Counted from the stretch's first letter, positions 2,291 through 59,936 are shown. The stretch: DNA of 64,000 nucleotides from a virus (IMGVR_UViG_3300032298_001038:1-64000); one strand, 5' to 3'. Notes: generated by a model not told the origin, from the sequence alone. Program-made: numbers and translations.

Positions 2291-2318
2291 ATATGCCCGG
2301 ATTTTGCTATTTATTTAG
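2291..2318 (-). promoter_or_regulatory. Phage promoter-like motif CTAAATA-N15-GCATAT
   Basis: Exact motif, 15-nt spacer, about 30 nt upstream of the AAA+ start; 1 of 9 copies. Confidence 0.8.
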
Positions 2319-2326
2319 CACCCCGC

Positions 2327-2360
2327 TGATATCTAAAAAAAGGGCCAACCACGCTGGCCC
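2327..2360 (-). terminator. Intrinsic terminator-like hairpin overlapping TTTAGATATCA element
   Basis: GGGCCA/TGGCCC stem followed by TTTTTTAGATATCA on the minus strand. Confidence 0.7.
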
Positions 2361-2376
2361 TGTGCGTTTCCGAACA

Positions 2377-2772
2377 TCACGCCGGCACCTCAACCGCGAG
2401 GCCGCCGTGCGCGTTTACCACCGCCTCCACAACTTCGACCGGAACCCAGCCGTAGACCGTCTCCGTCGGCTTTTCGGGGGATTCGGCGTACGCCATGAAC
2501 TCCTCGACGCGCTCCGACGGAAACCCGATCTCGACGGCGACCCATGGGCCGATGTTTTCCCGCGGCGAGCAGTACGTGTATTCCGAAGCCTGCGCAGAGA
2601 ATGTTAAACCATCGGCACACCTGATTCTTTTCATCTGGCGCATCATGGGAACTTTGCCTTCCCACGCTTTCGCCCAGTATTCGCCGCTCGCCTGCATCCG
2701 TCGAATTCTGGCGAGGCAGTCTTCGCGAAGATTGCTATCATCAGCCAGATAGTCGTTCAAGTTAAACGTCAT
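2377..2772 (-). CDS. Conserved phage hypothetical protein
   Basis: Start MTFNLND with SD AGGAG; SAQASEYTYCSPR...GFPS...TVYGWVPV motif recalled from phage proteins. Confidence 0.7.
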   Translation of the reverse strand: MTFNLNDYLADDSNLREDCLARIRRMQASGEYWAKAWEGKVPMMRQMKRIRCADGLTFSAQASEYTYCSPRENIGPWVAVEIGFPSERVEEFMAYAESPEKPTETVYGWVPVEVVEAVVNAHGGLAVEVPA

Positions 2773-2805
2773 GCTGAATACTCCTGATAGGTGCAATCGT
2801 CGTAA

Positions 2806-2843
2806 AAGCGCTGGCCCGGAGATTGCGACCCGGGCCAGCGCTT
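2806..2843 (-). terminator. Intrinsic terminator
   Basis: 14-bp perfect stem AAGCGCTGGCCCGG/CCGGGCCAGCGCTT, followed by TTTT on the minus strand. Confidence 0.7.
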
Positions 2844-2859
2844 ACGCTACCATACCGCC

Positions 2860-3381
2860 TCAGTTCTGGCTCGGCTCCCACCGTTTGTGGACCGTACCGC
2901 TGAGGGGCTGCGGAGTAATTGCCGCGGTCTTTGCGACCTTGGCCTTCGCAGCCTCGGCGGCGGCGAACTCCTCGTTTCGCTCCTTCTCCATCTTCTCGCC
3001 GTCAGCAAACAACTGCTCGGCGATGTGGTGAAAGTCGATCGAGGCCATGTACGCCGTGAAGACGCTTTCGGCAAACGTCATCGACGACGCCATCTCGTCG
3101 GCCGCCTTCTTGTGCGCCTCGTCGCCGGTCTCGACGGCGATCCGCATGAGCGTCACGATCTCGTTGAGCGTGCTGGCAATTGACTTGCCAACGACCATGG
3201 TGACCCACAGCCCCATGGCGGCGATCGCATCCCGGCGGTGTTCTTCGCACCACTCGGTCTTGCCCAACTTGTTGCGGCCTTCGAGCGCCATGGCGTACGG
3301 ATGGCCGTCCCACGGAATCTCATCGGCCTTCTTTCGGAACCGCTCCAGCGTGGTCTGCGTCGCCTCGTTAACAGCCTTCAT
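2860..3381 (-). CDS. Hypothetical early protein
   Basis: Start MKAVNE with SD GGAG, downstream of the promoter at 3463. Confidence 0.7.
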   Translation of the reverse strand: MKAVNEATQTTLERFRKKADEIPWDGHPYAMALEGRNKLGKTEWCEEHRRDAIAAMGLWVTMVVGKSIASTLNEIVTLMRIAVETGDEAHKKAADEMASSMTFAESVFTAYMASIDFHHIAEQLFADGEKMEKERNEEFAAAEAAKAKVAKTAAITPQPLSGTVHKRWEPSQN

Positions 3382-3462
3382 GTGGTAGTCTCCACCGCGC
3401 AGTGGAAATGGGATCGGCGGCGGTTGCGCGACCGTACGCCGATAAAAAACGTGCACTACCTA

Positions 3463-3490
3463 ATATGCCCGGATTTTGCCCGGTATTTAG
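3463..3490 (-). promoter_or_regulatory. Promoter-like motif CTAAATA-N15-GCATAT
   Basis: Exact motif; shares extended identity with the 2291 copy. Confidence 0.8.
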
Positions 3491-5640: not shown

Positions 5641-6567
5641 TCAGACAAACGTTACCTTCGCCAAACCATTCGTGTGGCCGAACGAGCCGCCTTGCGTGTT
5701 GTACGCAAAGTACTCAAGCATGAACGCTTCACGACGGATGTACATCGTGGTCGGTTCCAGTTCGTAGTTCTTGCCGATGAACTTCGGCGAGGCGAACATG
5801 TACAGCACATCGTTCGGAACGAGGTTCCGCTTGATCGTCACGATCCAGCGGCAGTTGAGGAAGTTCGTCTCCGCCCAACCGTTCTTGATGATGTCCTGCG
5901 AGAAATCACCGCCCATCTCGTCGCGGCCGAACTTCAGCAGTTCCTTGATGGTGATGTTATTCACCAAGCAAGTCTCCACTTCGAAGTGGCTGGGCGTCGA
6001 GGGCATAACCTTCAGGGCGTCAACGATCGTCTCGCGGGTGATCCCGCCCGAGATCGTGACGTTCTGCGGCACGCCGGACAGCGCGTTGTTGGTGTCGGCA
6101 GTACCGACGGCCACGTCGAGCGCCGTGATGAACTTGGAGTCCTCTTCGGCCAGCATGTCCTTGATCATGTTGTCCGACAGAACCTGACGGATGTCGATGA
6201 CGTACGTGCGCAGTTCGTCAACGTCCTTAACAGCGCGGGGCGACACGATCCGGTCAAACATGACGCGGTAGCGCGGGCCACGGATGTAGAAGTTGATCGG
6301 AAGCGTCGCGAACGGGAGCGACACGGCCGCCGGGGAATCGGGTTCCTTGTCGACAACCTTCACCGGCTTGTCCGTGTCAACCTGACGATCGAGTTCGTCG
6401 TTGGTGATGGTCAGCGGGGGAAGAATACGACGGTAGAACCCGTCTTCACGCATCTTGGTGCGCGTGAAGTCATTAACCGCATCAATGGCCTGCTTCTGCA
6501 TGCCGGGGGTATCAAGTTGCTCAAAAAGCGTCTCGTTGAGCAGTTGAACTTCTTGCTGAGTGGGCAT
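5641..6567 (-). CDS. Major capsid protein (HK97/encapsulin-like fold)
   Basis: About 308 aa, downstream of protease, scaffold and decoration genes; HK97-like pattern (spine-helix region QVLSDNMIKDMLAEEDSKFI, C-terminal beta strands). The start is likely MPTQQ, not MEV. Confidence 0.8.
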   Translation of the reverse strand: MPTQQEVQLLNETLFEQLDTPGMQKQAIDAVNDFTRTKMREDGFYRRILPPLTITNDELDRQVDTDKPVKVVDKEPDSPAAVSLPFATLPINFYIRGPRYRVMFDRIVSPRAVKDVDELRTYVIDIRQVLSDNMIKDMLAEEDSKFITALDVAVGTADTNNALSGVPQNVTISGGITRETIVDALKVMPSTPSHFEVETCLVNNITIKELLKFGRDEMGGDFSQDIIKNGWAETNFLNCRWIVTIKRNLVPNDVLYMFASPKFIGKNYELEPTTMYIRREAFMLEYFAYNTQGGSFGHTNGLAKVTFV

Positions 6568-6571
6568 TGTA

Positions 6572-6587
6572 AAGACCTCCATGTCTT
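6572..6587 (-). promoter_or_regulatory. CsrA/RsmA-type hairpin over the MCP Shine-Dalgarno
   Basis: AAGAC-ATGGAG-GTCTT. Confidence 0.6.
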
Positions 6588-13710: not shown

Positions 13711-14763
13711 TTAAACATTTTGGTCGACAAACCCGAAACAGACTGTGCAGTAATATTCGGCAGCACCGTAGTAAAACTTCACACTACTCATTGTTCCGTC
13801 GATTCGAATAATGTTGAACCCTTCTGCGCCAGTAAATTGTGTGTACTGAGTAACACCTACGGGATTTTGATATGTCGTCTCGCCGCCTGACTCCCAGATT
13901 GGCGTAAACGGTTTTGGATCACCATTCTCGTCCTGCACCTCTACTGGGACCGCCGTGCCTCCATTACCGACGCTAGCAAACGCGACTAGGGCGTCTGTGA
14001 CAGGCGAACTAAACACCGCCGTAAACACACCGGCCTGCGTGTTTGCAATTTGCTTGCCGCTGCTTGGTACGCCGTATTCTGTCGGAAAAGTGCCAGCCGA
14101 GTACATGCCGCCGTGCTCAAACATCCCGCCGCCACTTTGGGTAATCGCGACTGTGATATTGTTCTGCCCGATTCCAGACGCCGTGGTGGAGTCTACGCTA
14201 AGCATTCGCATCCACTTAAAACCAGAATCGCCAGTGCACGAAAAGTCATCGCAGGTTGCTAACGGGTTGTAATTGTCGGCGGCTGGATTCATGCAGCCAT
14301 AGACGCACGGAATACATGACCCGTCATCGCAGGTCGCGCTGGGGTTGTAGTTTGTGGCCGTGTCATCTGTGCAACCATTAACGCACGGCGGGCAAACTTG
14401 CTCAGCCGCATACGGCGCAGGCCAATTTACAAGCCAAGGCCGCGCCGCATAACTGTATGCCCGCGCAAGTTCTCCGTACGTCGCATTTGTGTAAAGCCAC
14501 ACGCCCGTCTCGTAGCGAACAACTTCATCCCCGTATTGATAAGTTGCGCGCCCGTAAGGCGCATAAGGAATAGGAGAAAGCGTGCGCTCGCCCGCGACCC
14601 AGCCCGTCATTTTGACCGGAGCAGTTGCCTCAGAACAACACGAATCGCCGCGACAGAACACCAACGTATCGCCTACAAATACGCGTTCAACATCGTCATC
14701 GCCTATTTTGATAGACGTGATATTAGCGCTGCCTATGTATGTATCGCTGTCTACTCTTGGCAT
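13711..14763 (-). CDS. Putative receptor-binding/surface protein with two GCxD..A.NY...A.CDD.SC repeats
   Basis: Cys-rich repeats GCTDDTATNYNPSATCDDGSC and GCMNPAADNYNPLATCDDFSC; beta-rich C-terminal domain. Confidence 0.55.
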   Translation of the reverse strand: MPRVDSDTYIGSANITSIKIGDDDVERVFVGDTLVFCRGDSCCSEATAPVKMTGWVAGERTLSPIPYAPYGRATYQYGDEVVRYETGVWLYTNATYGELARAYSYAARPWLVNWPAPYAAEQVCPPCVNGCTDDTATNYNPSATCDDGSCIPCVYGCMNPAADNYNPLATCDDFSCTGDSGFKWMRMLSVDSTTASGIGQNNITVAITQSGGGMFEHGGMYSAGTFPTEYGVPSSGKQIANTQAGVFTAVFSSPVTDALVAFASVGNGGTAVPVEVQDENGDPKPFTPIWESGGETTYQNPVGVTQYTQFTGAEGFNIIRIDGTMSSVKFYYGAAEYYCTVCFGFVDQNV

Positions 14764-15550: not shown

Positions 15551-17953
15551 TTACGAGGCTCCAGCGGTAGCGGCGAGATCAACGTCTTGCGCTTCCTCTT
15601 CCGGATACGGTTCAATTGTCTTTTGCTTGAGGAACAGAATTACGTCGCCCAACATTTCAAACGCGTTGCGGAGCGAGTCTTCCAGTTCCGGCATGTCGGC
15701 TTTGCCGTAACGATCGGCAAACCGGTCGCCGTGCCAGTAGAACATGAACAGGATGCGGCCCAACTTGTCGAGGCCCTTGGTCAGTTCGCCCATGTACCGG
15801 TCAACGAGACCATCGTCGCGCACGGCGCGCAACATCGTGCCGATCATGGCGGTGTCGAATACCTCGCGCTGACCGCTCTGCGCCGCACCGAGCACGTGCT
15901 GGATCGACTTCTGATCCAATTGCGTGTTCGGATTGTAAACGCTGCGGTCAGTCTGGCTTGCGGACATGCCGGGAACCGGCGCGCCGACGTCGATGCCGAG
16001 TTGTGTCGGAACGCTGGTGCCCATAATGGTTTCGCCGCCCATGACCGGGCCGGGATCAGCCGGCGCGCTGGGCGCGTTGTTAATCATCATCGGGCTGCCG
16101 TACGGGTCGGCGTACTTGATGTGGCACGCAAACTTGCGGCGGGCTTTGGCGTTGGCCAGTAACGTGCGGGCTGCGTCTTCACGCAGGCCATGACGTGCAA
16201 CAAGCGACGCCAAAGCATTCTTTTCCGACAACTCTTTTTCAATGAGTTGCTTCTTCGGACTGTGAATCTCGACTGCCGTGCCGTTGTGATAAATCGTCAC
16301 GCTGCCGAGTTTCTGCATCAGCGAGAGTTGCGCGTCAGCAAGGTTGCCCGGCATCAGCGGCGGATTGGCGCTTTCGCCGCAGCCGCAAGCGTCTTGCCCG
16401 TCAGCCGTTTCGGCGTCGTCTTCGCCCGGCGCGCACTTCAACAACTTGTACCCTTCGGGCACAAAGATGTCGCCCATGCTGAAGCGAAGTTTCGAGCCTC
16501 CCTTTCCGTTCAGGTGAATGCGCACGCCGTCGCGGTACTTGTCGTAGTTCAGCGGGTCGGTGTAGCAGCAGGGAGAGATTGAACCCTTGGGCGGGAATTT
16601 GGAATGGTCTTCCATGTGGACTTCGTAAGCGTTGCCGCCAAACTCAGTCTCGCCGTATTCGCGAATAACGCGGAACGGGACAGTCGTGTCGCCGTTCTTG
16701 TGAATCGCCATGTAACGGCCGCTCTTCGACACACTGTTGGCGTCGGAAAGGCCGTTGTACCACGAATCAAACTCGTCGCCTTCAACACGGCTCAGACAGA
16801 ACACGTGGTCGGCGCGGGTGTTGATCCACTCCGGCTTGCCTTCCGTGCGGACGACGGTGACAAAGTCGCTGCGCTTGCTCGGCCCCATCGGGTAGACAGC
16901 GATATAGCACTTTTCCACGTCGCCCGGCTTGACGAGCACCATGTACAGGCCGCTTTCGGTCGGATTGAATAACTTCTTCTCGACCTGAATGTTGTAGGGG
17001 ACAGACACGTTGTCGCGGTCGCGGATGTCTTTGATCAGAATCCCGTCGCGCAGCAACTTTTCTTGGTCCTCTTCGGTGTAGCCCGGCGGGAGCGCCGTCT
17101 GCATCGTCGCGTCGTACGTGATGACCTTCAGCGTGGCCATAGCCTTGGGTTTTTCGGGCGCTTCGGACAACACGCTCGCGACCTTGTGGTTCGCGGCGGC
17201 CTCACGGGCCTTCGCCGTACCGATTGCCTCGCTAATAATATCTAAACCGTGAAACTCGTCGATCGCCTCGGCGAGGTGTGGTGCAAACTGGCAGGTTTTA
17301 ACAAGCGCGGCAATAGTCTCCATGCCGGCTTGCTTCAGAAACGCCTTGAGATTTAACTTGTGGCCCAACTCTTCAAAAGCCAATTTGGTGTTCATGGTTG
17401 CCGTCTTCGCCAGTGTCGGCAGCACGGCGGTCATCATTTCCTTGAGCGTGGGCTGCGCCGAACCGAACTTGGCCGGAGACCGTGACAACTGCGTAAAATC
17501 GGGTTGGCGCTGGCCAAACTGCGTCAGGTTCTTGTCGATACCGCTGCCGAGAATGCTGGGCTTGCGATTAATGAGGTAATTGACCCAGTTTTCCTTGAGC
17601 GGCACGAACATGTCCTGATTCTTGATATACAGGAGTTCGTGCCCCTTGAGGTCGCCGTTGAGGAAGAATACGGGCGCGTACAACCACATCGACCCAACCT
17701 TAAACGCAAAAACGCCAACAGCCTTGGTGTTTTCTCGGTTTCGGTCGAGGAGTTGGAACCCGATCTCGTGATCCATTAACTTGGGCGCGCCATCGCGGAG
17801 ATAGGCGTGAGCGAGGTTTGAAAACGCCTGCTCAAACGCCATGTCGTCGCCTCGGCCGCCGATTTCGGCAACCTTGGTCTGGGTACGGTCATAGGACCGG
17901 ACGACGTTTAACCAATGCTTCCACGATGCTTCTTTAGTCTTTTTGTTGTACAC
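15551..17953 (-). CDS. Large conserved virion/head protein with K-x-A sites
   Basis: About 800 aa; probable GTG start 8 nt after GGAGG; LAKTA, LKQA and IKYA motifs. Confidence 0.65.
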   Translation of the reverse strand: MYNKKTKEASWKHWLNVVRSYDRTQTKVAEIGGRGDDMAFEQAFSNLAHAYLRDGAPKLMDHEIGFQLLDRNRENTKAVGVFAFKVGSMWLYAPVFFLNGDLKGHELLYIKNQDMFVPLKENWVNYLINRKPSILGSGIDKNLTQFGQRQPDFTQLSRSPAKFGSAQPTLKEMMTAVLPTLAKTATMNTKLAFEELGHKLNLKAFLKQAGMETIAALVKTCQFAPHLAEAIDEFHGLDIISEAIGTAKAREAAANHKVASVLSEAPEKPKAMATLKVITYDATMQTALPPGYTEEDQEKLLRDGILIKDIRDRDNVSVPYNIQVEKKLFNPTESGLYMVLVKPGDVEKCYIAVYPMGPSKRSDFVTVVRTEGKPEWINTRADHVFCLSRVEGDEFDSWYNGLSDANSVSKSGRYMAIHKNGDTTVPFRVIREYGETEFGGNAYEVHMEDHSKFPPKGSISPCCYTDPLNYDKYRDGVRIHLNGKGGSKLRFSMGDIFVPEGYKLLKCAPGEDDAETADGQDACGCGESANPPLMPGNLADAQLSLMQKLGSVTIYHNGTAVEIHSPKKQLIEKELSEKNALASLVARHGLREDAARTLLANAKARRKFACHIKYADPYGSPMMINNAPSAPADPGPVMGGETIMGTSVPTQLGIDVGAPVPGMSASQTDRSVYNPNTQLDQKSIQHVLGAAQSGQREVFDTAMIGTMLRAVRDDGLVDRYMGELTKGLDKLGRILFMFYWHGDRFADRYGKADMPELEDSLRNAFEMLGDVILFLKQKTIEPYPEEEAQDVDLAATAGAS

Positions 17954-17957
17954 AGGC

Positions 17958-17973
17958 GCCACCTCCATGCGGC
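17958..17973 (-). promoter_or_regulatory. CsrA/RsmA-type hairpin over SD
   Basis: GCCGC-ATGGAG-GTGGC (one G-U pair). Confidence 0.55.
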
Positions 17974-18000: not shown

Positions 18001-19941
18001 TTACAGTGTTCTTGGCTCGGAGCCTAGCGGACTTGCGGGGGTTTGAAAGGCTTTTTGGGGGTTAGATTCAGTTTTCCACCCACTTGTCGCGCCAGAAACG
18101 CCAAATTGCTCGCCCCGCGCGAGCGCAGGCACGTAACTGCTACCTTCGGTATCGCTCTTCAACCCGCGGTGAACACTGTTTAAAAATCCACGTTCTTGAT
18201 ACGACCCCAGCATACGCGTCATCCAGTCAGGATCGTTTGAAATGTTGGCCATGCCGCGCACCATCTCGGACTCGAAGGGCGGCGGCTCTTTATGGGCCTG
18301 AATATTGTTTATGCCGTACTTTTTCAAGTTGTCCGCGACGCTTTTAGTTATTTTTGTGCCGATCGAATAGTGCAAGACCGGTTCTTCCAGATAATGATTC
18401 ATAAGCGTATTCGGCGCAGATGCCACAGCGCCCGAACGCGGCTTCCACGACCGTTCCAGCATTGAATATGGAATAACGTCGTCTGGGGCGTAGTCGCCGT
18501 ATTCGTCGTTCAGCCTGACGTGGTTGATCAGCCCGCGCGCCACTAGTTCGATGTTACGCCGGTGGGCTGTGATGCCGGAATTACCAAGCACTTGCCGCAT
18601 GGCTTGCACGAAGTACTTACGCCCTTCACCGACGCCTTTGTGTTTAACAATCTCGGCGGGGTTGGGCATGCCGTCTGACAGTACGTCGCCGGCTTCCAGT
18701 GCGTCGCCTTTCTTGACGCTCACTTGTCGGTCTGCCGGGACGTAGTGATCTTCACCGTCAACGGTGACGTAAAAGCCGCCCTGCGCGGCTGGGCGAATTT
18801 CTTGCACGCGGCCTTCGCGCTGCGTGTGCGTAGCGCCGTCGGGGTAACGTCGTGGAACTTGCACAAGCGCGTTAATAGCCTTGAAGCCGCCAATCGACTT
18901 TGCCCCGCCTACGCCACCCGAGTGCTTCGACGACAACTGCGACTGCGACACCGGCTCAGACAGCGCTTGCGCAGCCGCAATGCCGACGTAATCACCAACG
19001 GGTGGCACGCGGCCCTTTTCGCGATAGCCGACGTCTTTCGCGTATACGCCGCCATCCTCCGGACCGCCGACCAGCGGACTGCGCACTAAAATATCTTTAA
19101 CGCCCATCGCCTTGATGTCTTTGAGAATTTTGGGCGTGAGTACCGTGTTGCGCTTGTACGGGCCGACAGGTCGCGCCAAAAACGACCCTTCGTTATCCGG
19201 GTCGTCAACGTCGGACGGCAGGCCGCGGTTGTGCGCCGTTACCAGCCGCGCTTCGTCATCGTCGTCATCCGCGGTGACAAGGAGGCGGTGCGCCATCTGC
19301 GTAAGTTGCTTGCCATAAAAACCGGCGTCAGCGGTGGCGGTCTTCACGTCAATCACGCCCTTACGCGTACCGAACGATGCCGCGAAGTATTCAGCCGGCG
19401 TCAAGCCGCGACTGTAACTCCGCAGCACCGGCAGCGGGATTGGGTTATCACGATGGTCGACATATTGCATGTCAGCGCCAATCAGCGAGTTCAACATAAA
19501 CTTGTTGCCCGTGGCGCCGGCCAGCACTTGGTGCGCAAGCGGGTTGTTGGCGTCGCGAGCCTCGTTAAACACGTCTTCAACAAGTTTCTGCTGCGTTTCA
19601 GCCGCAAGTTTCAGAATTTTTAACTCGCGCTCTTTGTCCGAGAGGTTAGTGTCCGCAAGAATTTGACGCAGTTCTTTGCGGACTTTGATTTGCGCGTGGC
19701 GGCTCGCAAACGTCGGCCGAATGTCTTTCAGCCCCATCGACAACCCACCCGTGGTGTACGCCACGTCGCGGGAAACATCGTGAATCTTCTTCATCACCTC
19801 GCGGTACCGGTCAGGGTATTTTTTTGCTAGATCGGTGGCCAACGCGCCCATAGCCTTCTTGTCCAACACGCGTTCGTAATCACGCATGTCGTCCGGAAGG
19901 GCTTCGTTGATCATTAACTGGCCAAGGGTAGTTTTTAACAC
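18001..19941 (-). CDS. rpoC: DNA-directed RNA polymerase beta' subunit, C-terminal half
   Basis: TTLGQL; bridge helix GLTPAEYF...RKGVIDVKTATADAGF; trigger loop GIAAAQALSEPVSQ...KHSGG; no Cys. Confidence 0.92.
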   Translation of the reverse strand: MLKTTLGQLMINEALPDDMRDYERVLDKKAMGALATDLAKKYPDRYREVMKKIHDVSRDVAYTTGGLSMGLKDIRPTFASRHAQIKVRKELRQILADTNLSDKERELKILKLAAETQQKLVEDVFNEARDANNPLAHQVLAGATGNKFMLNSLIGADMQYVDHRDNPIPLPVLRSYSRGLTPAEYFAASFGTRKGVIDVKTATADAGFYGKQLTQMAHRLLVTADDDDDEARLVTAHNRGLPSDVDDPDNEGSFLARPVGPYKRNTVLTPKILKDIKAMGVKDILVRSPLVGGPEDGGVYAKDVGYREKGRVPPVGDYVGIAAAQALSEPVSQSQLSSKHSGGVGGAKSIGGFKAINALVQVPRRYPDGATHTQREGRVQEIRPAAQGGFYVTVDGEDHYVPADRQVSVKKGDALEAGDVLSDGMPNPAEIVKHKGVGEGRKYFVQAMRQVLGNSGITAHRRNIELVARGLINHVRLNDEYGDYAPDDVIPYSMLERSWKPRSGAVASAPNTLMNHYLEEPVLHYSIGTKITKSVADNLKKYGINNIQAHKEPPPFESEMVRGMANISNDPDWMTRMLGSYQERGFLNSVHRGLKSDTEGSSYVPALARGEQFGVSGATSGWKTESNPQKAFQTPASPLGSEPRTL

Positions 19942-19947
19942 GGCAAG

Positions 19948-20163
19948 TCATTTCGGCGGAACAAGTTCTCGTACGGTCGGCGCGTTGTTGAGGCCGACCA
20001 TGTTGAGTACGGTTTTGAAATCACTATCCCCAACTGCCGAGTACAAAATGCCGTCTACAAGGTGCGTAGCGACAAAAATTGGATTACCCAAATCGTCTTC
20101 GATCACGACGCTATGGGCTTTTTGGTCGGCAGGAATTAAGTTGTGCTGCGTTTTAACGAGCAT
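19948..20163 (-). CDS. Small hypothetical protein between RNAP genes
   Basis: 71 aa, coupled to neighbours. Confidence 0.55.
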   Translation of the reverse strand: MLVKTQHNLIPADQKAHSVVIEDDLGNPIFVATHLVDGILYSAVGDSDFKTVLNMVGLNNAPTVRELVPPK

Positions 20164-20896
20164 TGTCCGTCAAACTCCGGTGCAACGCTTTCGCTGCGCT
20201 GACTTTTGCTTGAAGATCAATGTTCAAAATCTCAGCGGCAACGGGCTGACCAACACGCGAAACAGCGTGCTGCTCGACGCGCTCCCACCAGTTCGCCTGC
20301 TTGCCAGCAGCAGCCGGATCAGCCGGCGGCGCGCCGGGAGGCAGCGGACCTCCGGGAGGCAGCGGGCCGCCCGGCGCTTGAGGACCGCCTGCCGGGGCCG
20401 GAGGCGGCGCCATCGGACCACCGGGGAGCGCGGTTTCGGCCGGCGGGGCGCCGGTTGTGCCGGGAGGAAGTACAAGCGACTCAGGCGCAACCTGCACGCC
20501 CATCGCGTTCATGATCGCGGTGAGTTGCTGCTGCATGTTGTACAGCCGGTAGTCAAGCATCTGCATCATTTGTTCTGGCTTTAACTTCTGACCAGCACCG
20601 GCGCCGGCAGGACCGGCGGCTTGCGGAGTAGCCGGCGGAAGCGCGCCAAGCATCGACGGGTCCATCATGCCCGGAGGAGCGGCAGCCGGAGGAGCGCCAC
20701 CACCCGCGGCGGCGGCAGCCTGCGCCGGATCAACGGGCTGTTGCGCGCCAAGCGCGTCAGGAGTCATGGGAGGCATGCCGACCTGCTGGGACTGATCAGC
20801 GCCCATTTGGCCGCCCTGCGGCGGCACAACCGCCGACTTTTCAAATACCCGGCGGCTCGCAAGCGCCAGCAGTTCCGGATTTACCGTGTAGGACAT
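20153..20896 (-). CDS. Pro/Ala/Gln-rich Cys-free protein with K-x-A sites
   Basis: FEKSA and GKQA flank a low-complexity core; start MSYTV. Confidence 0.65.
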   Translation of the reverse strand: MSYTVNPELLALASRRVFEKSAVVPPQGGQMGADQSQQVGMPPMTPDALGAQQPVDPAQAAAAAGGGAPPAAAPPGMMDPSMLGALPPATPQAAGPAGAGAGQKLKPEQMMQMLDYRLYNMQQQLTAIMNAMGVQVAPESLVLPPGTTGAPPAETALPGGPMAPPPAPAGGPQAPGGPLPPGGPLPPGAPPADPAAAGKQANWWERVEQHAVSRVGQPVAAEILNIDLQAKVSAAKALHRSLTDNAR

Positions 20897-20897
20897 A

Positions 20898-20913
20898 TTT
20901 ACCTCCATGTAAA
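20898..20913 (-). promoter_or_regulatory. CsrA/RsmA-type hairpin over SD
   Basis: TTTAC-ATGGAG-GTAAA. Confidence 0.6.
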
Positions 20914-20916
20914 CAA

Positions 20917-23900
20917 TCAGGCCTTATCTTCCACAATGTGTACCGGCGTGTCCACGTCGATATCGCCCCGTCGGTAGGCGGCGAGGGCGTCTTTTTTCGT
21001 GCGGTAAACGCGCGGCTTAGATTTGTTGTTAACCTTGCTTGAGGCTAAGTATACACCAGTCTGGTAGTCTTTGTTTGGTACATAATGGGCTTTGAAGTTA
21101 GACGCTGCGAAAAGGTTTTTGCTGGGCAGCATCTTTTCGACGGCTTCCTTGGCGGCTTCTTCGGTGCTGGGCACGTGGTACTGCATCGCGTCGCCGTCGA
21201 AATCGGCCCCGAAGCCTTTTGTGATAACCGGGTTTACTTCCATGACCTTGTTTTTTGTTAACCGCGGATAAAACGCCATAACGCCGTACCGGTGTAGAAC
21301 GGGCGCGCGGTTAATGACGATGGGCTTCGCGTTCATTTGCGTGTTTAATTCGGCAAACGCTTCTTTGTTGCGCTCTTCGACTGCCCGCATCGCGTTCATT
21401 CGCGGCATGCCGCGCCTGATCAGCCCGCGGACGACAAACGGCTTGTAAATGTCCCACGCTTTGTCTTCTGGCAGGGCTACCTCGTCCATGTCGAGGTCCG
21501 GGTTGGGCGAGATTACGGCCCGGCCGACAAGGTCCACAGTGCTCGACAGCAGTTTGCGCTGCATCGTGCCAAACTTCGGACTGTCACCAAATATCTTTGA
21601 CAAGAAACCGCGCACGTTCCGTTCGACGTTCTTCGGGTGTTGCGGATCGCCAAGGCCGGACACCGCCTTCATCGAGTCGTATAACGACAACCGCTCGCCG
21701 CCGACGTCGGAAAGCAGGCCAGAGGCTTCCTTCAGCACGTTGTTCGACTCAAGCAGTTCTTTGTACAGATAGTTAGCGTCGTCGATAAGTTGCATCTTCT
21801 TCGCGCCCATCGTCGAGACTGGGCGGAACGCTGGCGGCAGCACGCCGACCTTGGTTTGCATCCAGTCTTTCGGATGGACGCCAGTGGCTTCTGCGCCCTT
21901 CAAAAACGCGAGCCGGCGCACGGCCGCGTCGCGCAACGTCTTGCGACCAGATTTGATGTCTGCGCGCGCTTGCTCGATTGCGCGCGGAAGGTTCACAGAC
22001 TTTAACGCTTCGTGAATCGCTGTTGGTCCGGTCTTGTTGCCCAACTTCTCTTGACCGGCGAGCACGGCGCGGAACTTCTTTTCGGTCAAGCCTAGCGTTC
22101 GCCGAATCGGCTCTTCCATGATCGGGTTCGGCATCGGCTCGTGTAATGTTATTTTTGACCAACGATTGCCGTTGTGACCGCCAGTCAGCGTCTCGTCGAA
22201 CAGCCCGCCTTTAACCGGCTTCAGGTTGCCCTTCCAGTCGACGGTCTCGGCGTTCTGAATCTCGCGATCGCCGGCTAACTCTTCGACGTTCTTGTCAGTC
22301 AACGCCATGATGTGCGTCTTCGAGCCGGTGCGCACAGCGTTTACGCCAGCGCCGCGAAGTTGATTGACAAACTTCTCGTACACGTGCGGCACCTTCGGCA
22401 GCGGCGGGTCATACCCGGCCATGAACTGCGTCCAGTATTCGGGGTTGGCTTGGCCGCGTACCATCTTGGCGTCGCGCACAACCTTGCCGGCGCCGTGAGA
22501 CAAAAGCGCGCCCAGTTCCAGCATGCCGACGCGCTTAGCGCCTTCGCTGCCGCCCTTGGCGGGCGTGCCTTCAGCCGTATACCCGCCGATCGACCGCCCC
22601 TGACCTTTAGACTCAGCCGTGTGGTGCAGTTTCATAAAGAAACGGTTGCCGGTCAGCACGCCACGAATCTTGCGGCCAGTTTCTGGGTCAATCAGGTCTT
22701 CAGTGTCTGTCAGCCCGTGCTTGGCCAACTCCGCGGCGGCCATCTCGACCAGATCGTTATCGTTATCGAAGTCTTTGATCTTGAACGGCTGGCCAGTCTT
22801 TTCAGAAACTTTGCCCAACGCGGCTTCGATGATCTGCGCAGGGTTTACGCGATTAATTAAGCCGAGCGGGCTGACAAGAATTTCGAGCGGCCGGCCTTGC
22901 CCGTCTTGCGGCATCTGATTGTCAGGAACAATCTCCGACACAACGCCCTTGTCGCCGAAGCGGCCGGTAATCTTGTCGCCGACCTCCATCTGCGACTTCG
23001 ACTTCACGACGACGGACACGCCCTTCTTGGTGTGCTCCACGTCAGTCACGACGCCCGGCGAGTGATGCTCCCACGTCATCGTCTCGTTCGCGAACGCGCC
23101 CGCCCGGCCGCGGTGTACTTTGCCGTAAACCTGATCGCGCTTCTTGGCGACGAGCACCAGCGGGTCGCCAAAATTGACGATCGTGCCTTTTTTGATTGCG
23201 CCGTTATCGTCAAAGTTCTCCAGCATCTTTTTGTCGTACTCGCTGGGAAACAAACTGACGAAAGCCTTCTTGCCGACGTGGGTGTTGTCATCCCACTCGG
23301 CTTCGTGCTGATACATGTGCTGGCTGGTGAGTTTCTTGGCAGCCGATTCAGATATCACAACGGCGTCTTCGTAGTTGCGCCCGCGGAACGGCGTATAGCC
23401 CACGCGCAAATTTAAACCCAGCGCAGCCGCGCCGCCTTTATCAGTAAAGTTACTGGTAGCGATCAGTTGGCCGGGCTTCACGACATCGCCGGGCTTTACC
23501 GTCGGCGTCTGCGTCCAGAACGTCTTCCGATTGAACGGCATGTCGTTGTATAAGTCGATCGTGTGCTTCTGGCCGTCCTTGTCGCGAATGATCATCTCGT
23601 CTGGCGTGACTGCGACAACTTGCCCGCCGACTTGGGATTTAATTGCGCCTAACTTTTCGCCCATCTCGTCTTCGTGCGAAACGCTTCCGTCACCGTCGAA
23701 CTTGGCGGATTGCACGAACGGCGACTCAGCGTTTTCGAGCGGGAGCGCCTGCGTAAACATACGGCTACCCATGATGACGCGCTGGCCTTTTACCATGCTT
23801 TTCATCGGCACCATGTTGGTCAGCGACGAAAACGTGTTGTCCATGTTCGGAACGGTGTACTGCGCGTCTTTGCGCGGCACGTACTTAATCTTGCCGTTTA

Positions 23901-25347
23901 CAAGCGCCGCGACCATCGGCAGGTCCGACTTGTCCTCGCCCGGGAACATGAGCGGCATGTCCGCCAGTTCTTGCGGCGTCTTGTACTCCGTCTCGCCGGT
24001 GTTGGCGTTCTTGACGGGCACCACAAACGTGTGCAGGTTGTTGCCCAACTTGCGCGCCCCGGCAGCGAAGCGCATGTCTACGCCCACCTTGCCAGACTCC
24101 GGCGTGCGGAGATAGTCGATAAAGCCGAAGTGGCTGGGCTGCACGCTGCGCGACTCCGCCGGCACGGCGTCCAGCGAGCCGATGCCGCCTTCGCCGAGCC
24201 GGGTCACGCGCGTCTGGTGGTCAAAAATTTCAGCCGGGTTGATTTCTTCGAGGCTCGACCCCAATCCCGAGCCAATGAGCGCCGCGGTGATCGACTTGTT
24301 AAAGATGCCGCTGGGGATGTGGTCCAGCGTCTTCTTCGCGGTGGCTTTCCAGAGCAACTGCCGCAGGGCCGACTTGTCTTTCACGAACCGTTCCGATATC
24401 AAATCTTCCGGGCCAAAGACTTGCTGGAACGTCATGCTATCGCGGTCGTCGCTTTCGGCTTCCTTGCGATTGACCGCGATAAGTTTTTTGGTGATGTCCA
24501 GAATGGCGTCTGGCGTCAGATTCTTGTACGGCGTGCCCAACGTGCGCTTCGTAACCTCTTCGTCCAACTCCGTCTTGGCAAACTCCGCGGCGATAGCCTT
24601 GATCTTGGCTAACTGGTCCGCTGCCGGGTCTGGCTTAAATACGAGCCGGCTGTAAAGTTTATCCAGCGTGCCGGCGTCGCCTTTCTGCATGTTTACGGCG
24701 GCGATCTCGTTGCCCCACGCTTCCCGTATCTGCTTTTCTTGCACGCCGAGTGTCTTCAGCAGCGGCATGAGCGGAATCTTAGCCTGCCCGATCTGGATTT
24801 GAAACTCGCCGGTTTTGGGGTCCATGTAATAACGGTGCGAGCGGCCTTTGCCGGGCAGCGTGTTAACGTGCGATTCCAGTTCGCCGTTATCTTTCTCGCG
24901 CGTGAACACGCCCGGCCTGAGTCGCAGTTGATGTGCCAGCGTGTATTCGACACCTTTGTTTACAAACGTACCTGAGTCGGTCAGATATGGCACATTTGCT
25001 ATCGTAGCCTGTCGCGAAGCGACAGGCTTTTCCGAGCCATTTTCTATTAAAGTCCACGTGCCCGTTAACTTTCGGGCAAGTGTGCCGCGAGTTAATACAG
25101 CCTTCTTTTGATCTTTACGCGAATAGCGCTCAGGCCCCGCGTAACCCACGTTCGTGAGTTTAAGGGTGTAAAGATCGTTCTGGATCGGCTCAATGCCTGA
25201 CGCAGAACGCAGCGCCTCGTTAAAGATGTTATCGCGCAGGGCGTTAATATCGCCGAATGCGCGGGTCTGTTGCTGCGGAGGAGCAAGAGGCGGAAGAGCC
25301 GGAACTGTCTGCGGTTTCAGCGGCGGCAAGGGGTCGGACATGGTCAC
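20917..25347 (-). CDS. rpoB-rpoC: RNA polymerase beta subunit fused to beta' N-terminal half (catalytic DFDGD)
   Basis: beta motifs GTFVNKG, RTPESGKVG, GDKITGRFGDKG, KLHH...KRVGMLE, followed by beta' motifs KGGLFD, VLPPAFRP, NRAPVLHR, GADFDGDAM; no Cys. Confidence 0.95.
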   Translation of the reverse strand: MTMSDPLPPLKPQTVPALPPLAPPQQQTRAFGDINALRDNIFNEALRSASGIEPIQNDLYTLKLTNVGYAGPERYSRKDQKKAVLTRGTLARKLTGTWTLIENGSEKPVASRQATIANVPYLTDSGTFVNKGVEYTLAHQLRLRPGVFTREKDNGELESHVNTLPGKGRSHRYYMDPKTGEFQIQIGQAKIPLMPLLKTLGVQEKQIREAWGNEIAAVNMQKGDAGTLDKLYSRLVFKPDPAADQLAKIKAIAAEFAKTELDEEVTKRTLGTPYKNLTPDAILDITKKLIAVNRKEAESDDRDSMTFQQVFGPEDLISERFVKDKSALRQLLWKATAKKTLDHIPSGIFNKSITAALIGSGLGSSLEEINPAEIFDHQTRVTRLGEGGIGSLDAVPAESRSVQPSHFGFIDYLRTPESGKVGVDMRFAAGARKLGNNLHTFVVPVKNANTGETEYKTPQELADMPLMFPGEDKSDLPMVAALVNGKIKYVPRKDAQYTVPNMDNTFSSLTNMVPMKSMVKGQRVIMGSRMFTQALPLENAESPFVQSAKFDGDGSVSHEDEMGEKLGAIKSQVGGQVVAVTPDEMIIRDKDGQKHTIDLYNDMPFNRKTFWTQTPTVKPGDVVKPGQLIATSNFTDKGGAAALGLNLRVGYTPFRGRNYEDAVVISESAAKKLTSQHMYQHEAEWDDNTHVGKKAFVSLFPSEYDKKMLENFDDNGAIKKGTIVNFGDPLVLVAKKRDQVYGKVHRGRAGAFANETMTWEHHSPGVVTDVEHTKKGVSVVVKSKSQMEVGDKITGRFGDKGVVSEIVPDNQMPQDGQGRPLEILVSPLGLINRVNPAQIIEAALGKVSEKTGQPFKIKDFDNDNDLVEMAAAELAKHGLTDTEDLIDPETGRKIRGVLTGNRFFMKLHHTAESKGQGRSIGGYTAEGTPAKGGSEGAKRVGMLELGALLSHGAGKVVRDAKMVRGQANPEYWTQFMAGYDPPLPKVPHVYEKFVNQLRGAGVNAVRTGSKTHIMALTDKNVEELAGDREIQNAETVDWKGNLKPVKGGLFDETLTGGHNGNRWSKITLHEPMPNPIMEEPIRRTLGLTEKKFRAVLAGQEKLGNKTGPTAIHEALKSVNLPRAIEQARADIKSGRKTLRDAAVRRLAFLKGAEATGVHPKDWMQTKVGVLPPAFRPVSTMGAKKMQLIDDANYLYKELLESNNVLKEASGLLSDVGGERLSLYDSMKAVSGLGDPQHPKNVERNVRGFLSKIFGDSPKFGTMQRKLLSSTVDLVGRAVISPNPDLDMDEVALPEDKAWDIYKPFVVRGLIRRGMPRMNAMRAVEERNKEAFAELNTQMNAKPIVINRAPVLHRYGVMAFYPRLTKNKVMEVNPVITKGFGADFDGDAMQYHVPSTEEAAKEAVEKMLPSKNLFAASNFKAHYVPNKDYQTGVYLASSKVNNKSKPRVYRTKKDALAAYRRGDIDVDTPVHIVEDKA

Positions 25348-26372
25348 ACCCCTTGGTCGTCATGCGGTTCTTTCGTGGCAGCCACGTCTTTGACCTGCGC
25401 TAATTCCTGCGGATCAATCCAGACTGGCATTGTGTCTTTCATGCGATCCTTGGCCGCCAGAGCCTTGGCCAGATTCTTCGCTGAGGACGCGGCCATGGTC
25501 TTGTCATACATGTATTTGCCGCCGATCAGGCCGCCGCCGAGCGTCGCGCCAGCGGCTGCCACGCCGTACATGTTGGGCAAGTCGTGAAAAATGGACTTAA
25601 GGATAGGCAAACGAGACGGATCAACGTAGCGGAGATAATCCGACCAGTCGGCTTTCTTTTCGGTATACACGTCATAGGCTTGATCGAGCATGTCGGTAAC
25701 CGAGGACTTCTTCTCTTTTTTGCTATCTTTGTCGTCGTCCTTCAGCAACTCATCAAAATACTGCCGGCGAGCGGACTCAACGTTGTCATATTGTTCTTTT
25801 TTCTTCTCGGCTTCGGCGTACGGCTCAGCGGCCATATCGTAAAGCGTCTTTCCGCCCAGCACGCCGAGACCAGCGCCGCCAGCGTTCATCATCGCGTTCC
25901 AGCCGGTATATCCAGAACCGCGATTAAAAAGCGGCTTACCTAAGATCGGCTCCAAAAACGGGAGATACGAGCGCGGCGTGTTCTTGCCCAAAAACTCGTG
26001 AACAGGCTTGGTGTTTAAACCCGCGCCCACGCCAGCACCTGCAAGCCCGCCCAGCAACGCATTCCGCTTCTTCGTCTTCTCGTCCGACAACGCAGACGCC
26101 AAGATCGCACCAGCCGCGCCGCCAACAGCCGGCGCCGCAACCGTATACGCGTCAAAAGCCAATTTCTTTTGCTCAGGAGCCGGCAGTAATTCAGGCGTAT
26201 CAAGCGCGACGTCATTGTAGTCGGGCGTTACGGGCTTGCTGCGCGCCAACTGATCTTCAAAGCGCTTCCGCAGTTTCTTGGCCAAGTAGTACAGCCCGGT
26301 GGCCGAAGCCCCGACGCCGGTGCCTAACAGGACATTGTTAAAGATTTCTTTGCCGTCTTCTGCGTAGCCCAT
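25344..26372 (-). CDS. Gly-zipper virion protein (Cys-free, K-x-A sites)
   Basis: Several GxxxG hydrophobic helices; KKLA, KKSS and EKKA. Confidence 0.65.
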   Translation of the reverse strand: MGYAEDGKEIFNNVLLGTGVGASATGLYYLAKKLRKRFEDQLARSKPVTPDYNDVALDTPELLPAPEQKKLAFDAYTVAAPAVGGAAGAILASALSDEKTKKRNALLGGLAGAGVGAGLNTKPVHEFLGKNTPRSYLPFLEPILGKPLFNRGSGYTGWNAMMNAGGAGLGVLGGKTLYDMAAEPYAEAEKKKEQYDNVESARRQYFDELLKDDDKDSKKEKKSSVTDMLDQAYDVYTEKKADWSDYLRYVDPSRLPILKSIFHDLPNMYGVAAAGATLGGGLIGGKYMYDKTMAASSAKNLAKALAAKDRMKDTMPVWIDPQELAQVKDVAATKEPHDDQGV

Positions 26373-27866: not shown

Positions 27867-28148
27867 TTATCGCGAAATAGTCTGCCCGAGCGTGGGATCG
27901 CAGTCGGGGCACTTGGTCCAGCCATGATCATCGCCCGTCCTGACTCGCCCAGTGCCCTTGCAGGTCGTGCAGTCCTTTGTGGGGACTTTGGGCTTTACGG
28001 GCGCTGCTTCAGGAATAAGAGCAGAATAAGCAGCCTCTGAAGCGACCAGAGCGATATAGTCTTTTTGAGGCGCGGCGTTGTCATGATACAGCCCCGGCGA
28101 AAAAAGACCGAGCACGAACGCGATAAGCGCCGTTAACCAGTTAGGCAT
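27867..28148 (-). CDS. Membrane-anchored protein with DnaJ-like CxxCxGxG zinc finger
   Basis: N-terminal hydrophobic segment; CTTCKGTG...CPDC. Confidence 0.6.
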   Translation of the reverse strand: MPNWLTALIAFVLGLFSPGLYHDNAAPQKDYIALVASEAAYSALIPEAAPVKPKVPTKDCTTCKGTGRVRTGDDHGWTKCPDCDPTLGQTISR

Positions 28149-28237
28149 GCTTGTACCCTTTAATATTTTGAAGGTTTGAGCGGTTGAACACAAATTTCTT
28201 ATGTCGTTCCGCGTAACATATCAAAACCGATATGTCG

Positions 28238-33602: not shown

Positions 33603-33872
33603 CTATTTCGACCGGAAGCCGAATATGCCTTTAATAAACCGCACAGTGCCGCGCAGCAAAAGATACAGCCACGCGATAAAGCCGCTGATAGCAAAAAAAA
33701 CAATTGCCGGGACGCTCACGAATACCGGCCAGAGTTCCTTTAAGTTTACCTGACGCAGCGTTAACCACACACGCATCCACGGCGTACGATTCGGACTATC
33801 ATCGGGAATTGGCGGGATTACAGGCTGCGGGTCGGTCTTTTTGGGTTTTAACCAGCCGTCAATCCAACTCAT
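33603..33872 (-). CDS. Small membrane protein
   Basis: C-terminal TM helix. Confidence 0.6.
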   Translation of the reverse strand: MSWIDGWLKPKKTDPQPVIPPIPDDSPNRTPWMRVWLTLRQVNLKELWPVFVSVPAIVFFAISGFIAWLYLLLRGTVRFIKGIFGFRSK

Positions 33873-35836
33873 TTCGGCCTCCCAAACACTGTGTTCATGA
33901 AACTATCGCCGTAGCGTCCAATGACTTGGTCGACCATCGGCTCTTCTTCCATTTCATTGTTCATGGCTTTCATGGCCAGTTGATACCGGTAGTTGGGATC
34001 AAGTGTCGCCATGTAGCGCTGCTGGTTGATTTTGGCGTTGCGCATGAAGTCGCCGCGCTGTTTCACCTGCATTAACTGCTCTTGGATGTTTTCGGCCACT
34101 GTTTTGTCGTAGTTGTATGTCAGCGGCCGGTTTAACCCGTAAGAGTTGTATAGCGCGGTGGCATATGCGCTCCGGGGCTGACGATATGCGGCTTTGACAG
34201 ACTCAGGGATCGCGGTTGGCTCGACGTGGAACCGGAACTTCGTCGGCTTGTGCGTAATTCCCTTGTGGTACGGCTTCGGGTCGTCTACGTGCCAGTCTTT
34301 AGGCGCTTTAGCCATGAGCCGCCGCAAGATTTCAGTTTTGTGCGCGTACCTTTTGTTATCTGAATGGTCTTTAGCCGCGCGGAGTTCGTCGAGAATGCGC
34401 GCTTGGGATTCCGCCTGCTTCTTTTGCTCTTCTTGCTCGTCTGGCTGCTGGGGGTTCGGTAACTGCTGCCCTGACGGCGGAAGTGCGGGCGGAGGAACAA
34501 CACCGAAAGCCACGTCGTTTGTTACCGGCGGAGGCATTTCGGGCGGCGCAGTCAGGTCTTCGGCTAGTTCTGGCGGCTTTGGCGGTTTGGGAACTGGCGG
34601 AAGTGCAGGATTGTTGGCTGCTTTTTCAATCGCTTCTACTTTTTTGTAGTAGGACGCGTCTTCTTGCAGATGATCTTTGGCAATTTCTTTGGCGACTTGA
34701 CCATTGTTTGTGTGTTCGTGCTCATGCTGCGCTCCTGCGGCTAATGCTTTCTGAGAAATTTCCCGATCGGGAACATTGTCGGCTTTTCCACCCGGTAACA
34801 GGTCTTTTTGTCCCGAGCGGGAAAGTTTTGTTCCCGTACGGGCAAATTTTGCGGCTTTCTTTAACGCCGGCGCCAATAATGCTTTAATGTCTGGCCCCAT
34901 ATAGTCGGCGCCTTCGGGCAGTCCATGCGAAAGCGTGACCACAGCGTCAGAACCAACACTAGCGTTAAAGTTTCCGGGTTTGAGTTTGTGCTTGGGCAGT
35001 TCCAGATAATGCTCGTGCTGCCATCCTTCGCGCGGATCGTTACCTAAAGCGCGGAAAGCGGTTGGTTTGATTTTCACGCCGAGTTCTTCGAATAACTCAC
35101 GCGCAGCAGCCTGTTCTGGTGTTTCGCCCGTTTCGATACCGCCACCGATAAATCGCCGTTTGCCGATGTTTTCCGGCCACTTCGAGTTATTGAGCGTTTC
35201 CATCAAATACTGGTCTTTGTACGGCACGACGACGCGCACACGGGGCTGCGGGCTTTTAGCGGCGGCGGCTTTGCGCACACTATTGGCCTGCAACACGCTT
35301 TTCCGGCGCACGGCAACAGTAATGTGGAACGGGTGGCCATTTACGAACGGCTGCAACCCGTAACTCTTGCGAATAGCCGACAACATGGGCGACGAGACTT
35401 GCAGCGCCCATAACTTGCTGACGCCGTCGACATTCCGGGGGGTGATCTCTTTCAGGTGGCCGAGGGAGTAGCCAACCATGTGCCCGCGTTCGTTGATATT
35501 CTCCGGGCCGATCTTTTTGACTTCATCGGCAGTCATGACGGAGATATGCGCGTTCAAGACGTCGCTGGCTACGTTGGGCACGTTCATGGTGCCTGCCAGC
35601 GGAAGTTCGGCCCCGGGGGCAGTCATCGCGTCGTAGATGCCCCGGACAAGCGCGTTCGGGACGGAGAGAAGAAGCCAGCCGCTTTTGGCGACATACAGCC
35701 GGCCGGCGAGGGCGTGGCTGGTGGCGGCTTGTTTTTCATTACGCGCAAGCCAGCCGACAGCGTTGCCGATGCTGTATTCGCGTTGGGAGTTCAGCGGCTC
35801 GCGCCATGAACCGTCAAGAATAGAAAAGCCGTCCAT
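33869..35836 (-). CDS. Polyprotein: 2H phosphoesterase + Nudix hydrolase + DUF5661-like + two unknown modules
   Basis: HISV/HITV 2H motifs; complete Nudix box GGIETGETPEQAAARELFEELGV; EHEHT...IAKDHLQE...YYKK; K-x-A at each junction; no Cys. Confidence 0.85.
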   Translation of the reverse strand: MDGFSILDGSWREPLNSQREYSIGNAVGWLARNEKQAATSHALAGRLYVAKSGWLLLSVPNALVRGIYDAMTAPGAELPLAGTMNVPNVASDVLNAHISVMTADEVKKIGPENINERGHMVGYSLGHLKEITPRNVDGVSKLWALQVSSPMLSAIRKSYGLQPFVNGHPFHITVAVRRKSVLQANSVRKAAAAKSPQPRVRVVVPYKDQYLMETLNNSKWPENIGKRRFIGGGIETGETPEQAAARELFEELGVKIKPTAFRALGNDPREGWQHEHYLELPKHKLKPGNFNASVGSDAVVTLSHGLPEGADYMGPDIKALLAPALKKAAKFARTGTKLSRSGQKDLLPGGKADNVPDREISQKALAAGAQHEHEHTNNGQVAKEIAKDHLQEDASYYKKVEAIEKAANNPALPPVPKPPKPPELAEDLTAPPEMPPPVTNDVAFGVVPPPALPPSGQQLPNPQQPDEQEEQKKQAESQARILDELRAAKDHSDNKRYAHKTEILRRLMAKAPKDWHVDDPKPYHKGITHKPTKFRFHVEPTAIPESVKAAYRQPRSAYATALYNSYGLNRPLTYNYDKTVAENIQEQLMQVKQRGDFMRNAKINQQRYMATLDPNYRYQLAMKAMNNEMEEEPMVDQVIGRYGDSFMNTVFGRPK

Positions 35837-59836: not shown

Positions 59837-59864
59837 ATATGCCCGTATATGCGCAAATATTAAG
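59837..59864 (-). promoter_or_regulatory. Promoter-like motif CTTAATA-N15-GCATAT
   Basis: One mismatch, 15-nt spacer. Confidence 0.75.
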
Positions 59865-59872
59865 TCGGGCTT

Positions 59873-59923
59873 TGATATCTAAAAACAAGCGCCCAACCCC
59901 GGGGGCGCTTGTGGCCCCCGGGG
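59873..59923 (-). terminator. Hairpin + TTTTAGATATCA element
   Basis: ACAAGCGCCC/GGGCGCTTGT + T-tract, with an alternative CCCCGGGGG stem. Confidence 0.65.
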
Positions 59924-59936
59924 ACAGACACCACGA

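Follow-up and report, generated by a model that had tools for sequence, protein, structure and literature searches.

The virion RNA polymerase (RNAP) of phage N4, gp50, contains no cysteine (Cys) in its 3500 amino acids (aa), as had been stated in a first-pass annotation of the DNA described here, and the same is true of gp51 and gp52, which are encoded beside it in the virion block. This suppression of Cys is conserved in the ejection operon of the Schitoviridae, and passage through the periplasm has been cited as its cause (PMC11445570). The virion RNAP of phiKZ is a two-barrel multisubunit enzyme (gp80, gp149, gp178, and gp180), carried inside the head and injected (PMC10612078). A layout in which beta is fused to the N-terminal part of beta' (approximately 1500 aa) and the C-terminal part of beta' is a separate chain (approximately 600 aa) is found in Salmonella phage Arash (OQ632216, PMC10585845) and in Vibrio phages D69, D148, and D181. 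The multisubunit-RNAP-encoding Caudovirales (mReC) have separate beta and beta' subunits that align readily to their cellular homologs, together with a T4-type capsid protein (PF07068); a fusion-and-split layout, virion association, and Cys content have not been described for them (PMC7481178). Here, we describe an RNAP of the Arash layout without a single Cys, encoded in the viral DNA IMGVR_UViG_3300032298_001038:1-64000 (hereafter the window). The window covers the initial 64 kb of a virus record that is complete, has terminal repeats, and measures 198,312 bp. Earlier work has described this enzyme family and detected it in Arash particles (PMC10585845). We found no paper on its Cys-free and zinc-free nature, on the use of inteins as an internal control, or on the graded loss of its zinc sites, nor any literature report of a Cys-free multisubunit phage RNAP (PMC7598289, checked for subunit names and "zinc" only, had none).

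Layout of the polymerase genes

The first-pass annotation had reported two Cys-free open reading frames (ORFs), 2122 aa in total, and retranslation bore this out, placing both on the minus strand:

20917-25347, minus strand: RNAP large chain, 1476 aa, GTG start, no Cys; all of beta fused to the N-terminal half of beta'
18001-19941, minus strand: RNAP small chain, 646 aa, GTG start, no Cys; C-terminal half of beta', with the bridge helix and trigger loop region

Pfam recognizes Rpb2_6 (2e-49), Rpb2_3, Rpb1_1, and Rpb1_2 (7e-24) in the large chain and Rpb1_5 (4e-22) in the small one. By phmmer, residues 103-1004 of the large chain correspond to Escherichia coli RpoB 111-1337 and residues 1086-1465 to RpoC 159-544, a stretch that includes the Mg-binding xADFDGD loop of the beta' catalytic barrel (GADFDGD, residues 1380-1386; 21190-21210, minus strand). 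The basic GDK...GR.G.KG motif of the beta barrel is present as GDKITGRFGDKG (22945-22980, minus strand) and aligns to RpoB 1048-1126. The rest of beta', including the trigger loop (SQLSSKHSGG at 18913-18942, minus strand), is found in the small chain, of which residues 2-497 match positions ~659-1166 of solved bacterial beta' chains, its best solved relatives, with an E value of 1e-37. All the catalytic modules of E. coli RpoB and RpoC can be aligned, with the Mg loop, the Lys-rich motif of beta, and the trigger-loop His kept, but the enzyme is shorter than its E. coli counterpart (~2122 versus 2749 aa), has no Cys (versus 22 in RpoB plus RpoC), and differs in the fusion of beta to beta', the split of beta', the deletion of the zinc ribbon, and the replacement of the second zinc site. 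On these alignments, it is a compact bacterial-type core, in which one chain combines beta with the front half of beta' and the other supplies the back half. The genome (198,312 bp, complete) has a single beta locus and a single beta' locus; this is the only RNAP of the phage.

A search of a phage collection with the DNA of the RNAP region gave no near-identical match and no close cultured relative. At the protein level, the cultured phage nearest to this one is Arash, which grows on a laboratory strain of Salmonella (large chain, 32% identity over 97% of its length; small chain, 25% identity) and whose sigma factor gp10, SNF2 helicase gp217, portal, terminase, and capsid genes also have orthologs here. 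The Arash RNAP is strongly Cys depleted and devoid of the zinc ribbon as well. The two phages differ in gene arrangement, since the Arash RNAP gene follows the portal gene and some nine genes lie between its chains, whereas here a single small ORF separates the chains, and the portal gene is 65 kb away. The family as a whole is large: an exhaustive search with the small chain returned 4274 representatives of 50%-identity clusters at E ≤ 1e-3, and 1084 remained once those with E >1e-30 were excluded.

The other phage systems are more distant. The N4 enzyme has a single-subunit T7-like polymerase domain of unrelated fold within its 3500-aa protein, whereas Pfam and PHROGs give only Rpb1/Rpb2 domains in the window RNAP; N4 gp50 resembles the window enzyme in its way of working, including the Cys suppression typical of N4-like ejection proteins, and not in family membership. 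The phiKZ virion RNAP shares the two-barrel multisubunit architecture and a beta' split after the catalytic barrel but consists of four or five chains without a beta-beta' fusion, stands beside a second, non-virion RNAP, and is far more divergent from bacterial RNAP. Pfam barely detects it, and its models proved too insensitive to locate the phiKZ RNAP subunits, of which we took those of the virion enzyme from the annotated record and PMC10612078; the window enzyme, by comparison, matches bacterial beta' at 1e-37. No sigma factor has been reported for the phiKZ-type group (PMC7824862). With regard to the mReC, the window RNAP aligns well to its cellular homologs, and the capsid protein of the window phage has no Pfam match.

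Absence of cysteine and loss of the zinc sites

At the codon level, the lack of Cys is sharp. Given the position-specific base composition, 15.1 and 8.1 in-frame TGY codons would be expected in the large- and small-chain genes, respectively, and there is none, although TGY is plentiful in the two other frames (71/32 and 31/17). Trp codons, on the other hand, are near expectation (11 observed versus 10.5 expected), and 438 codons of the RNAP genes lie one substitution away from a Cys codon. The ORFs of the window contain 0.94% Cys on average, a crude gene set of the whole genome 1.54%, and the other genes of the RNAP block between 1 and 4.6%.

The trait is also conserved. In the first-pass annotation, it had been taken for a selected character, and the Cys counts in orthologs agree with this proposal. 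Among the best 120 large-chain homologs (74-95% identity, mostly on contigs of ~200 kb), 112 have no Cys, two have one, and six have between 6 and 13. For the small chain, the aligned parts of the best 150 representatives (46-57% identity) contain 77 Cys in 93,386 residues, nearly all of them the first residues of inteins at the alignment edges, so that only about 15 true extein Cys are left.

These inteins provide an internal control. Every Cys of the six Cys-bearing large-chain homologs is located inside an intein of 340-400 aa, and the 150 representatives of the beta' C-terminal chain carry 76 intein insertions at several conserved sites. The inteins are 1.87% Cys, begin with Cys, and end with Asn (N|S junction). 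By pattern match, 69 of the 76 are directly followed (+1) by Ser, one beta intein is followed by Thr, and Cys was never encountered there; the spliced host protein therefore stays Cys free. Cys is thus tolerated in the inteins, which are excised before maturation, and excluded from the mature chains. This pattern in the sequences points to selection acting on the finished protein and not to a mutational bias of the gene. The relatives with inteins are P0019 and P0063 (beta) and P0124-P0270 (beta' C-terminal chain), and the insertion sites are equivalent to window positions 24088-24105, ~18930, and ~19330.

We give practically no credence to the idea that composition, sulfur economy, or chance produced the lack of Cys as a side effect. 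What speaks for it is that phage structural proteins are generally low in Cys; against it stand the roughly 23 Cys expected, the abundance of out-of-frame TGY, the Cys content of genes in the same block, and the persistence of the trait over hundreds of clusters with the inteins as an internal control. Composition or chance is ruled out by zero in-frame TGY where ~23 are expected, and sulfur economy by Met, which makes up 3.05% and 2.63% of the two chains (2.22% genome-wide) and thus shows no depletion. Judged from these sequences, the absence of Cys is total, conserved, and under selection, and not the result of drift.

The first-pass annotation had also mentioned eight zinc-ligating Cys in bacterial beta', and they are indeed found in E. 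coli at positions 70, 72, 85, 88, 814, 888, 895, and 898. Neither of the two structural zinc sites that they make up is present here, which is a departure within the bacterial-type family and does not exclude the enzyme from it. The places where the sites would be expected are as follows:

22135-22206, minus strand: deleted N-terminal zinc ribbon of beta'; a conserved GLF anchor followed by a short Cys-free loop
19024-19275, minus strand: former second zinc site of beta'; scaffold kept and ligands replaced, from the phmmer alignment to RpoC

At the first site, residues 1029-1056 of the large chain align to RpoC 37-63, and homology picks up again at residue 1086 (RpoC 159). The zinc ribbon region thus measures 29 aa here versus 95 aa in E. 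coli, where it holds C70, C72, C85, and C88. At the second site, the ligands C814, C888, C895, and C898 correspond to D227, G293, Y300, and D303 of the small chain. The G, Y, and D of this series are found in 131, 137, and 150 of the 150 small-chain representatives, respectively.

The relatives of Arash show a different state. In 120 clusters with 51-100% identity to Arash gp216, the beta' C-terminal chain has four invariant Cys (120/120) with the spacing C...C-x6-C-x2-C, as in the second zinc site, and 113 of the 120 have no further Cys. These invariant residues align to the G/Y/D positions of the window small chain; that is, the Arash clade keeps the four second-site Cys that the window clade has replaced. 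The large chain of Arash, gp206, has one Cys in 1525 aa. The picture drawn by these alignments is one of stepwise loss, in which every dispensable Cys has been purged family-wide and the last zinc site replaced in the window clade, with the Arash clade as the intermediate.

Evidence for and against delivery in the virion

The RNAP chains are part of a wider set. Over the whole genome, 11 of the 81 predicted proteins of ≥250 aa have no Cys, versus 0.40 expected. Apart from the two RNAP chains, the class includes two small neighbors of the RNAP genes, an SNF2-family helicase, a protein with 2H-SAK, NUDIX, and DUF5661 domains, a sigma70-family protein, and four proteins of unassigned role (two within the window, of 635 and 901 aa, and two outside it, of 354 and 1387 aa). 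Two of these have a bearing on transcription:

47950-50319, minus strand: SNF2-family helicase, 789 aa, no Cys; Pfam SNF2-rel_dom and Helicase_C, PHROG 62
genome 178077-178883, outside the window: sigma70-family protein, no Cys; Pfam Sigma70_r3 (36.8 bits) and Sigma70_r4 (22.6 bits)

The helicase shares 35% identity with Arash gp217 (472 aa, none of them Cys), and by analogy with that phage it is likely a transcription partner of the RNAP and copackaged with it. The sigma70-family protein is orthologous to Arash gp10 (0 Cys in 234 aa). A search for a second sigma factor gave no ortholog of Arash gp196 by BLAST or phmmer and no Sigma70_r2 match. The genome also contains a strict bipartite motif, CTAAATA-N15-GCATAT, with 12 copies in all, each on the strand of the genes; nine of them fall within the window, where 0.01 would be expected by chance. 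Its copies lie at window positions 2291-3490 and 59837-63132 (minus strand) and at genome positions 73184, 95058, and 158891, and seven of them are clustered at 59.8-63.1 kb, before small ORFs. From its sequence, the motif is a candidate for a class of phage-specific promoters served by the sigma-like factor.

Particle proteomics are available for Arash (PMC10585845). There, the large RNAP chain gp206 ranked first in detection, with 128 unique peptides and 3516 spectra, and the small chain gp216, the helicase gp217, and the sigma factor gp10 gave 40, 38, and 24 unique peptides, respectively, compared with 32 for the portal protein and 30 for the capsid protein. Ribonucleotide reductase gave 11, and primase and DNA ligase gave two each. 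By analogy, this proteome backs virion delivery in the window phage, as supportive and not conclusive evidence.

Considering the Arash particles together with the conserved and total lack of Cys, we regard virion delivery as the best explanation and a probable one. We infer packaging and ejection in the window phage, the partners that would travel with the enzyme, and the reason for the loss of Cys. The RNAP would be made late and packed in the head together with the Cys-free sigma70-family factor and the Cys-free SNF2 helicase, and it would be expelled with the DNA, so that phage transcription could begin without new protein synthesis. As it would be kept outside the cell and would have to cross the tail and the envelope at least partly unfolded, the enzyme would be under a selection that strips every Cys and both structural zinc sites, which would avoid disulfide cross-links and allow refolding without metal. 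The covalent link between beta and beta' may stand in for assembly on an alpha dimer. The single RNAP set, the phage's own sigma-like factor, and the bipartite motif are supporting observations for an early transcription that would be free of new protein synthesis and of the host RNAP.

Several points weigh against this proposal. The Arash particles were taken from a sucrose gradient, in a fraction that contained 116 proteins, many of them plainly nonstructural, and the authors of that study offer carry-over of abundant proteins as an alternative (PMC10585845). Moreover, the particle data come from a phage whose large chain is only 32% identical, the window phage being known from its genes, and the argument based on the periplasm lacks an anchor in a host. 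The proposed cargo is also not Cys free throughout, since the 2H-SAK/DUF5661 protein of a 75%-identical relative (L020) has seven Cys. Finally, the phiKZ virion RNAP is ejected although 16 of its 2614 aa (0.61%) are Cys, and Arash keeps its four-Cys zinc site; hence, freedom from Cys is not required for ejection. It would seem that ejection of a multisubunit RNAP lowers the number of Cys and does not forbid them, and the Cys-free state is suggestive of ejection but no proof of it. For comparison, 33 Cys are found among the 2850 aa (1.16%) of the phiKZ non-virion RNAP (its subunits, gp55 excepted, are those that we take to make up this enzyme). Another phiKZ protein, the tail-associated lysin gp181 (L015 11334-18047), has a single Cys in 2237 aa and is far more depleted than the virion RNAP of the same phage.

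These points could be read as meaning that the RNAP is not a particle component at all but a middle and late enzyme produced abundantly once the host RNAP has transcribed the early genes, the Arash signal being carry-over, and Cys lost for some other cause, such as resistance to oxidative or thiol-directed responses of the infected host. The many nonstructural enzymes in the Arash list and the carry-over raised by its authors agree with this, as does the phiKZ case, in which an ejected RNAP retains Cys, so that the lack of them is no proof of ejection. Even so, we consider such an explanation quite improbable. In Arash, both RNAP chains, the helicase, and the sigma factor gave 24 to 128 unique peptides, like the portal and capsid proteins, against 2 to 11 for the replication enzymes named above, and the Cys-free class in the window phage, which is sharply bimodal, singles out precisely the orthologs of these Arash RNAP, helicase, and sigma proteins. 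Besides, the phiKZ non-virion RNAP and E. coli beta' have about 1.1% Cys, so there is no known need for an intracellular RNAP to shed Cys or zinc.

A different question is what the Cys would have been removed for in an RNAP that is indeed packaged and ejected. Instead of the periplasm, the pressure could come from long storage in oxic water at the high protein density of the head or from the need to refold without metal. The order of loss can be cited in favor, since the zinc ligands went last (they are the only Cys that the Arash clade retains, and the window clade has G/Y/D in their place), a pattern that fits pressure on metal-dependent refolding and on free thiols alike, and phiKZ crosses a Gram-negative envelope with its 16 Cys. 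The periplasm is, however, what the literature proposes for N4-like phages (PMC11445570), and the present data do not separate the possible causes; we regard storage or refolding as the less likely cause, though by no means a negligible one.

Gene neighborhood and significance

The remaining features of the neighborhood that are relevant to virion delivery are the following:

20153-20908, minus strand: 251-aa Cys-free ORF between the RNAP genes; N-terminal half rich in Pro, Ala, and Gly
25344-26372, minus strand: 342-aa Cys-free protein directly upstream of the RNAP gene; five hydrophobic segments rich in Gly and Ala
33869-35836, minus strand: 655-aa Cys-free protein of the polyvalent-protein type; Pfam 2H-SAK, NUDIX, and DUF5661
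5641-6582, minus strand: major capsid protein; 30% identity to Arash gp226 (E 1e-39) and a weak match to a PHROG of major head proteins

According to the first-pass annotation, the RNAP is located in the structural operon among Cys-free cargo, and this holds in part. The RNAP genes do belong to a long same-strand late block that includes the major capsid gene and a trypsin-like protease gene, and their two immediate neighbors are Cys free; on the other hand, the portal gene (at 90 kb) and the terminase gene (at 147 kb) are 65-125 kb from the RNAP, and the next genes downstream encode proteins with 9 and 14 Cys. The first of these, an 805-aa ORF just downstream of the RNAP (15551-17968), has nine Cys, as does its 794-aa counterpart in L020. 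The second (13711-14763, 350 aa, 14 Cys) is one of several Cys-rich proteins, others being found at 27867-28193 (108 aa, five Cys) and at genome positions 161552-165007 (1151 aa, 62 Cys, 5.4%). In L020, the gene order is kept, and small Cys-free ORFs flanking the RNAP recur. The protease (50665-51531; Pfam Trypsin, 4e-15) lies inside the late block and may be the head-maturation protease, although its family would be unusual for that role.

With respect to the two small neighbors, the 251-aa ORF has no Pfam or PHROG match, and only its C-terminal part is conserved in the 75%-identical relative, where it occupies the same position and is also Cys free. The 342-aa protein has a weak match to a Pfam glycine-zipper model, below the cutoff, and at the same position L020 has a Cys-free ORF of 293 aa (a positional match only). 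From its hydrophobic segments, the 342-aa protein may be a membrane-inserting ejection protein.

At the sequence level, members of the Cys-free class are linked by fusions found in relatives. In P0218, SNF2 is fused to the C-terminal part of beta' in a single chain with a NUDIX domain (beta'-NUDIX-SNF2), and in P0137, the same part of beta' is followed by DUF4269 and DUF5661. Altogether, domains of the 655-aa protein are fused to it in P0137, P0147, P0169, P0205, P0211, and P0218. In many relatives, this chain has a Cys-poor C-terminal extension of 400-1100 aa, most of them without a recognizable domain.

The class does not simply coincide with structural proteins. That equation was ruled out by the Cys kept in the portal protein (8), the capsid protein (2), and a protein similar to Arash gp222 (10), and the lack of Cys presumably fits only a subset, the internal or ejected proteins. 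Among the members of unassigned role, the 901-aa (53199-55904) and 1387-aa (genome 182339-186502) proteins have an unusually high Met content (4.3% and 6.0%, respectively). Neither has a Pfam match, nor the 1387-aa protein a PHROG match, and they are candidate internal or ejected proteins.

If delivered as proposed, this enzyme would be a third design of virion RNAP, beside the single-subunit N4-like one and the many-chain, very divergent one of phiKZ-like jumbo phages. It is clearly of the bacterial type, has its own sigma factor, and is very widespread, with >1000 clusters (at 50% identity) below 1e-30. The rule that ejected proteins shed Cys would thereby be carried from N4 to a cellular-type enzyme, and freedom from Cys could be used, as a simple feature of the sequence, to predict which proteins an uncultured phage injects (11 proteins in this genome). 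A broader proposal, which we put forward tentatively and at slightly less than even confidence, is that these phages inject a self-contained metal-free and thiol-free kit, made up of the two-chain RNAP core, the sigma factor, and the SNF2 helicase (with NUDIX or 2H domains fused in some relatives), that would refold once past the tail and make the infection independent of the host polymerase. The family also offers a natural experiment on how dispensable the structural zinc sites of RNAP are. Were the injected kit real, a cellular-type RNAP could work without either of them, and the Arash clade, with four Cys and one zinc site, would represent the intermediate.

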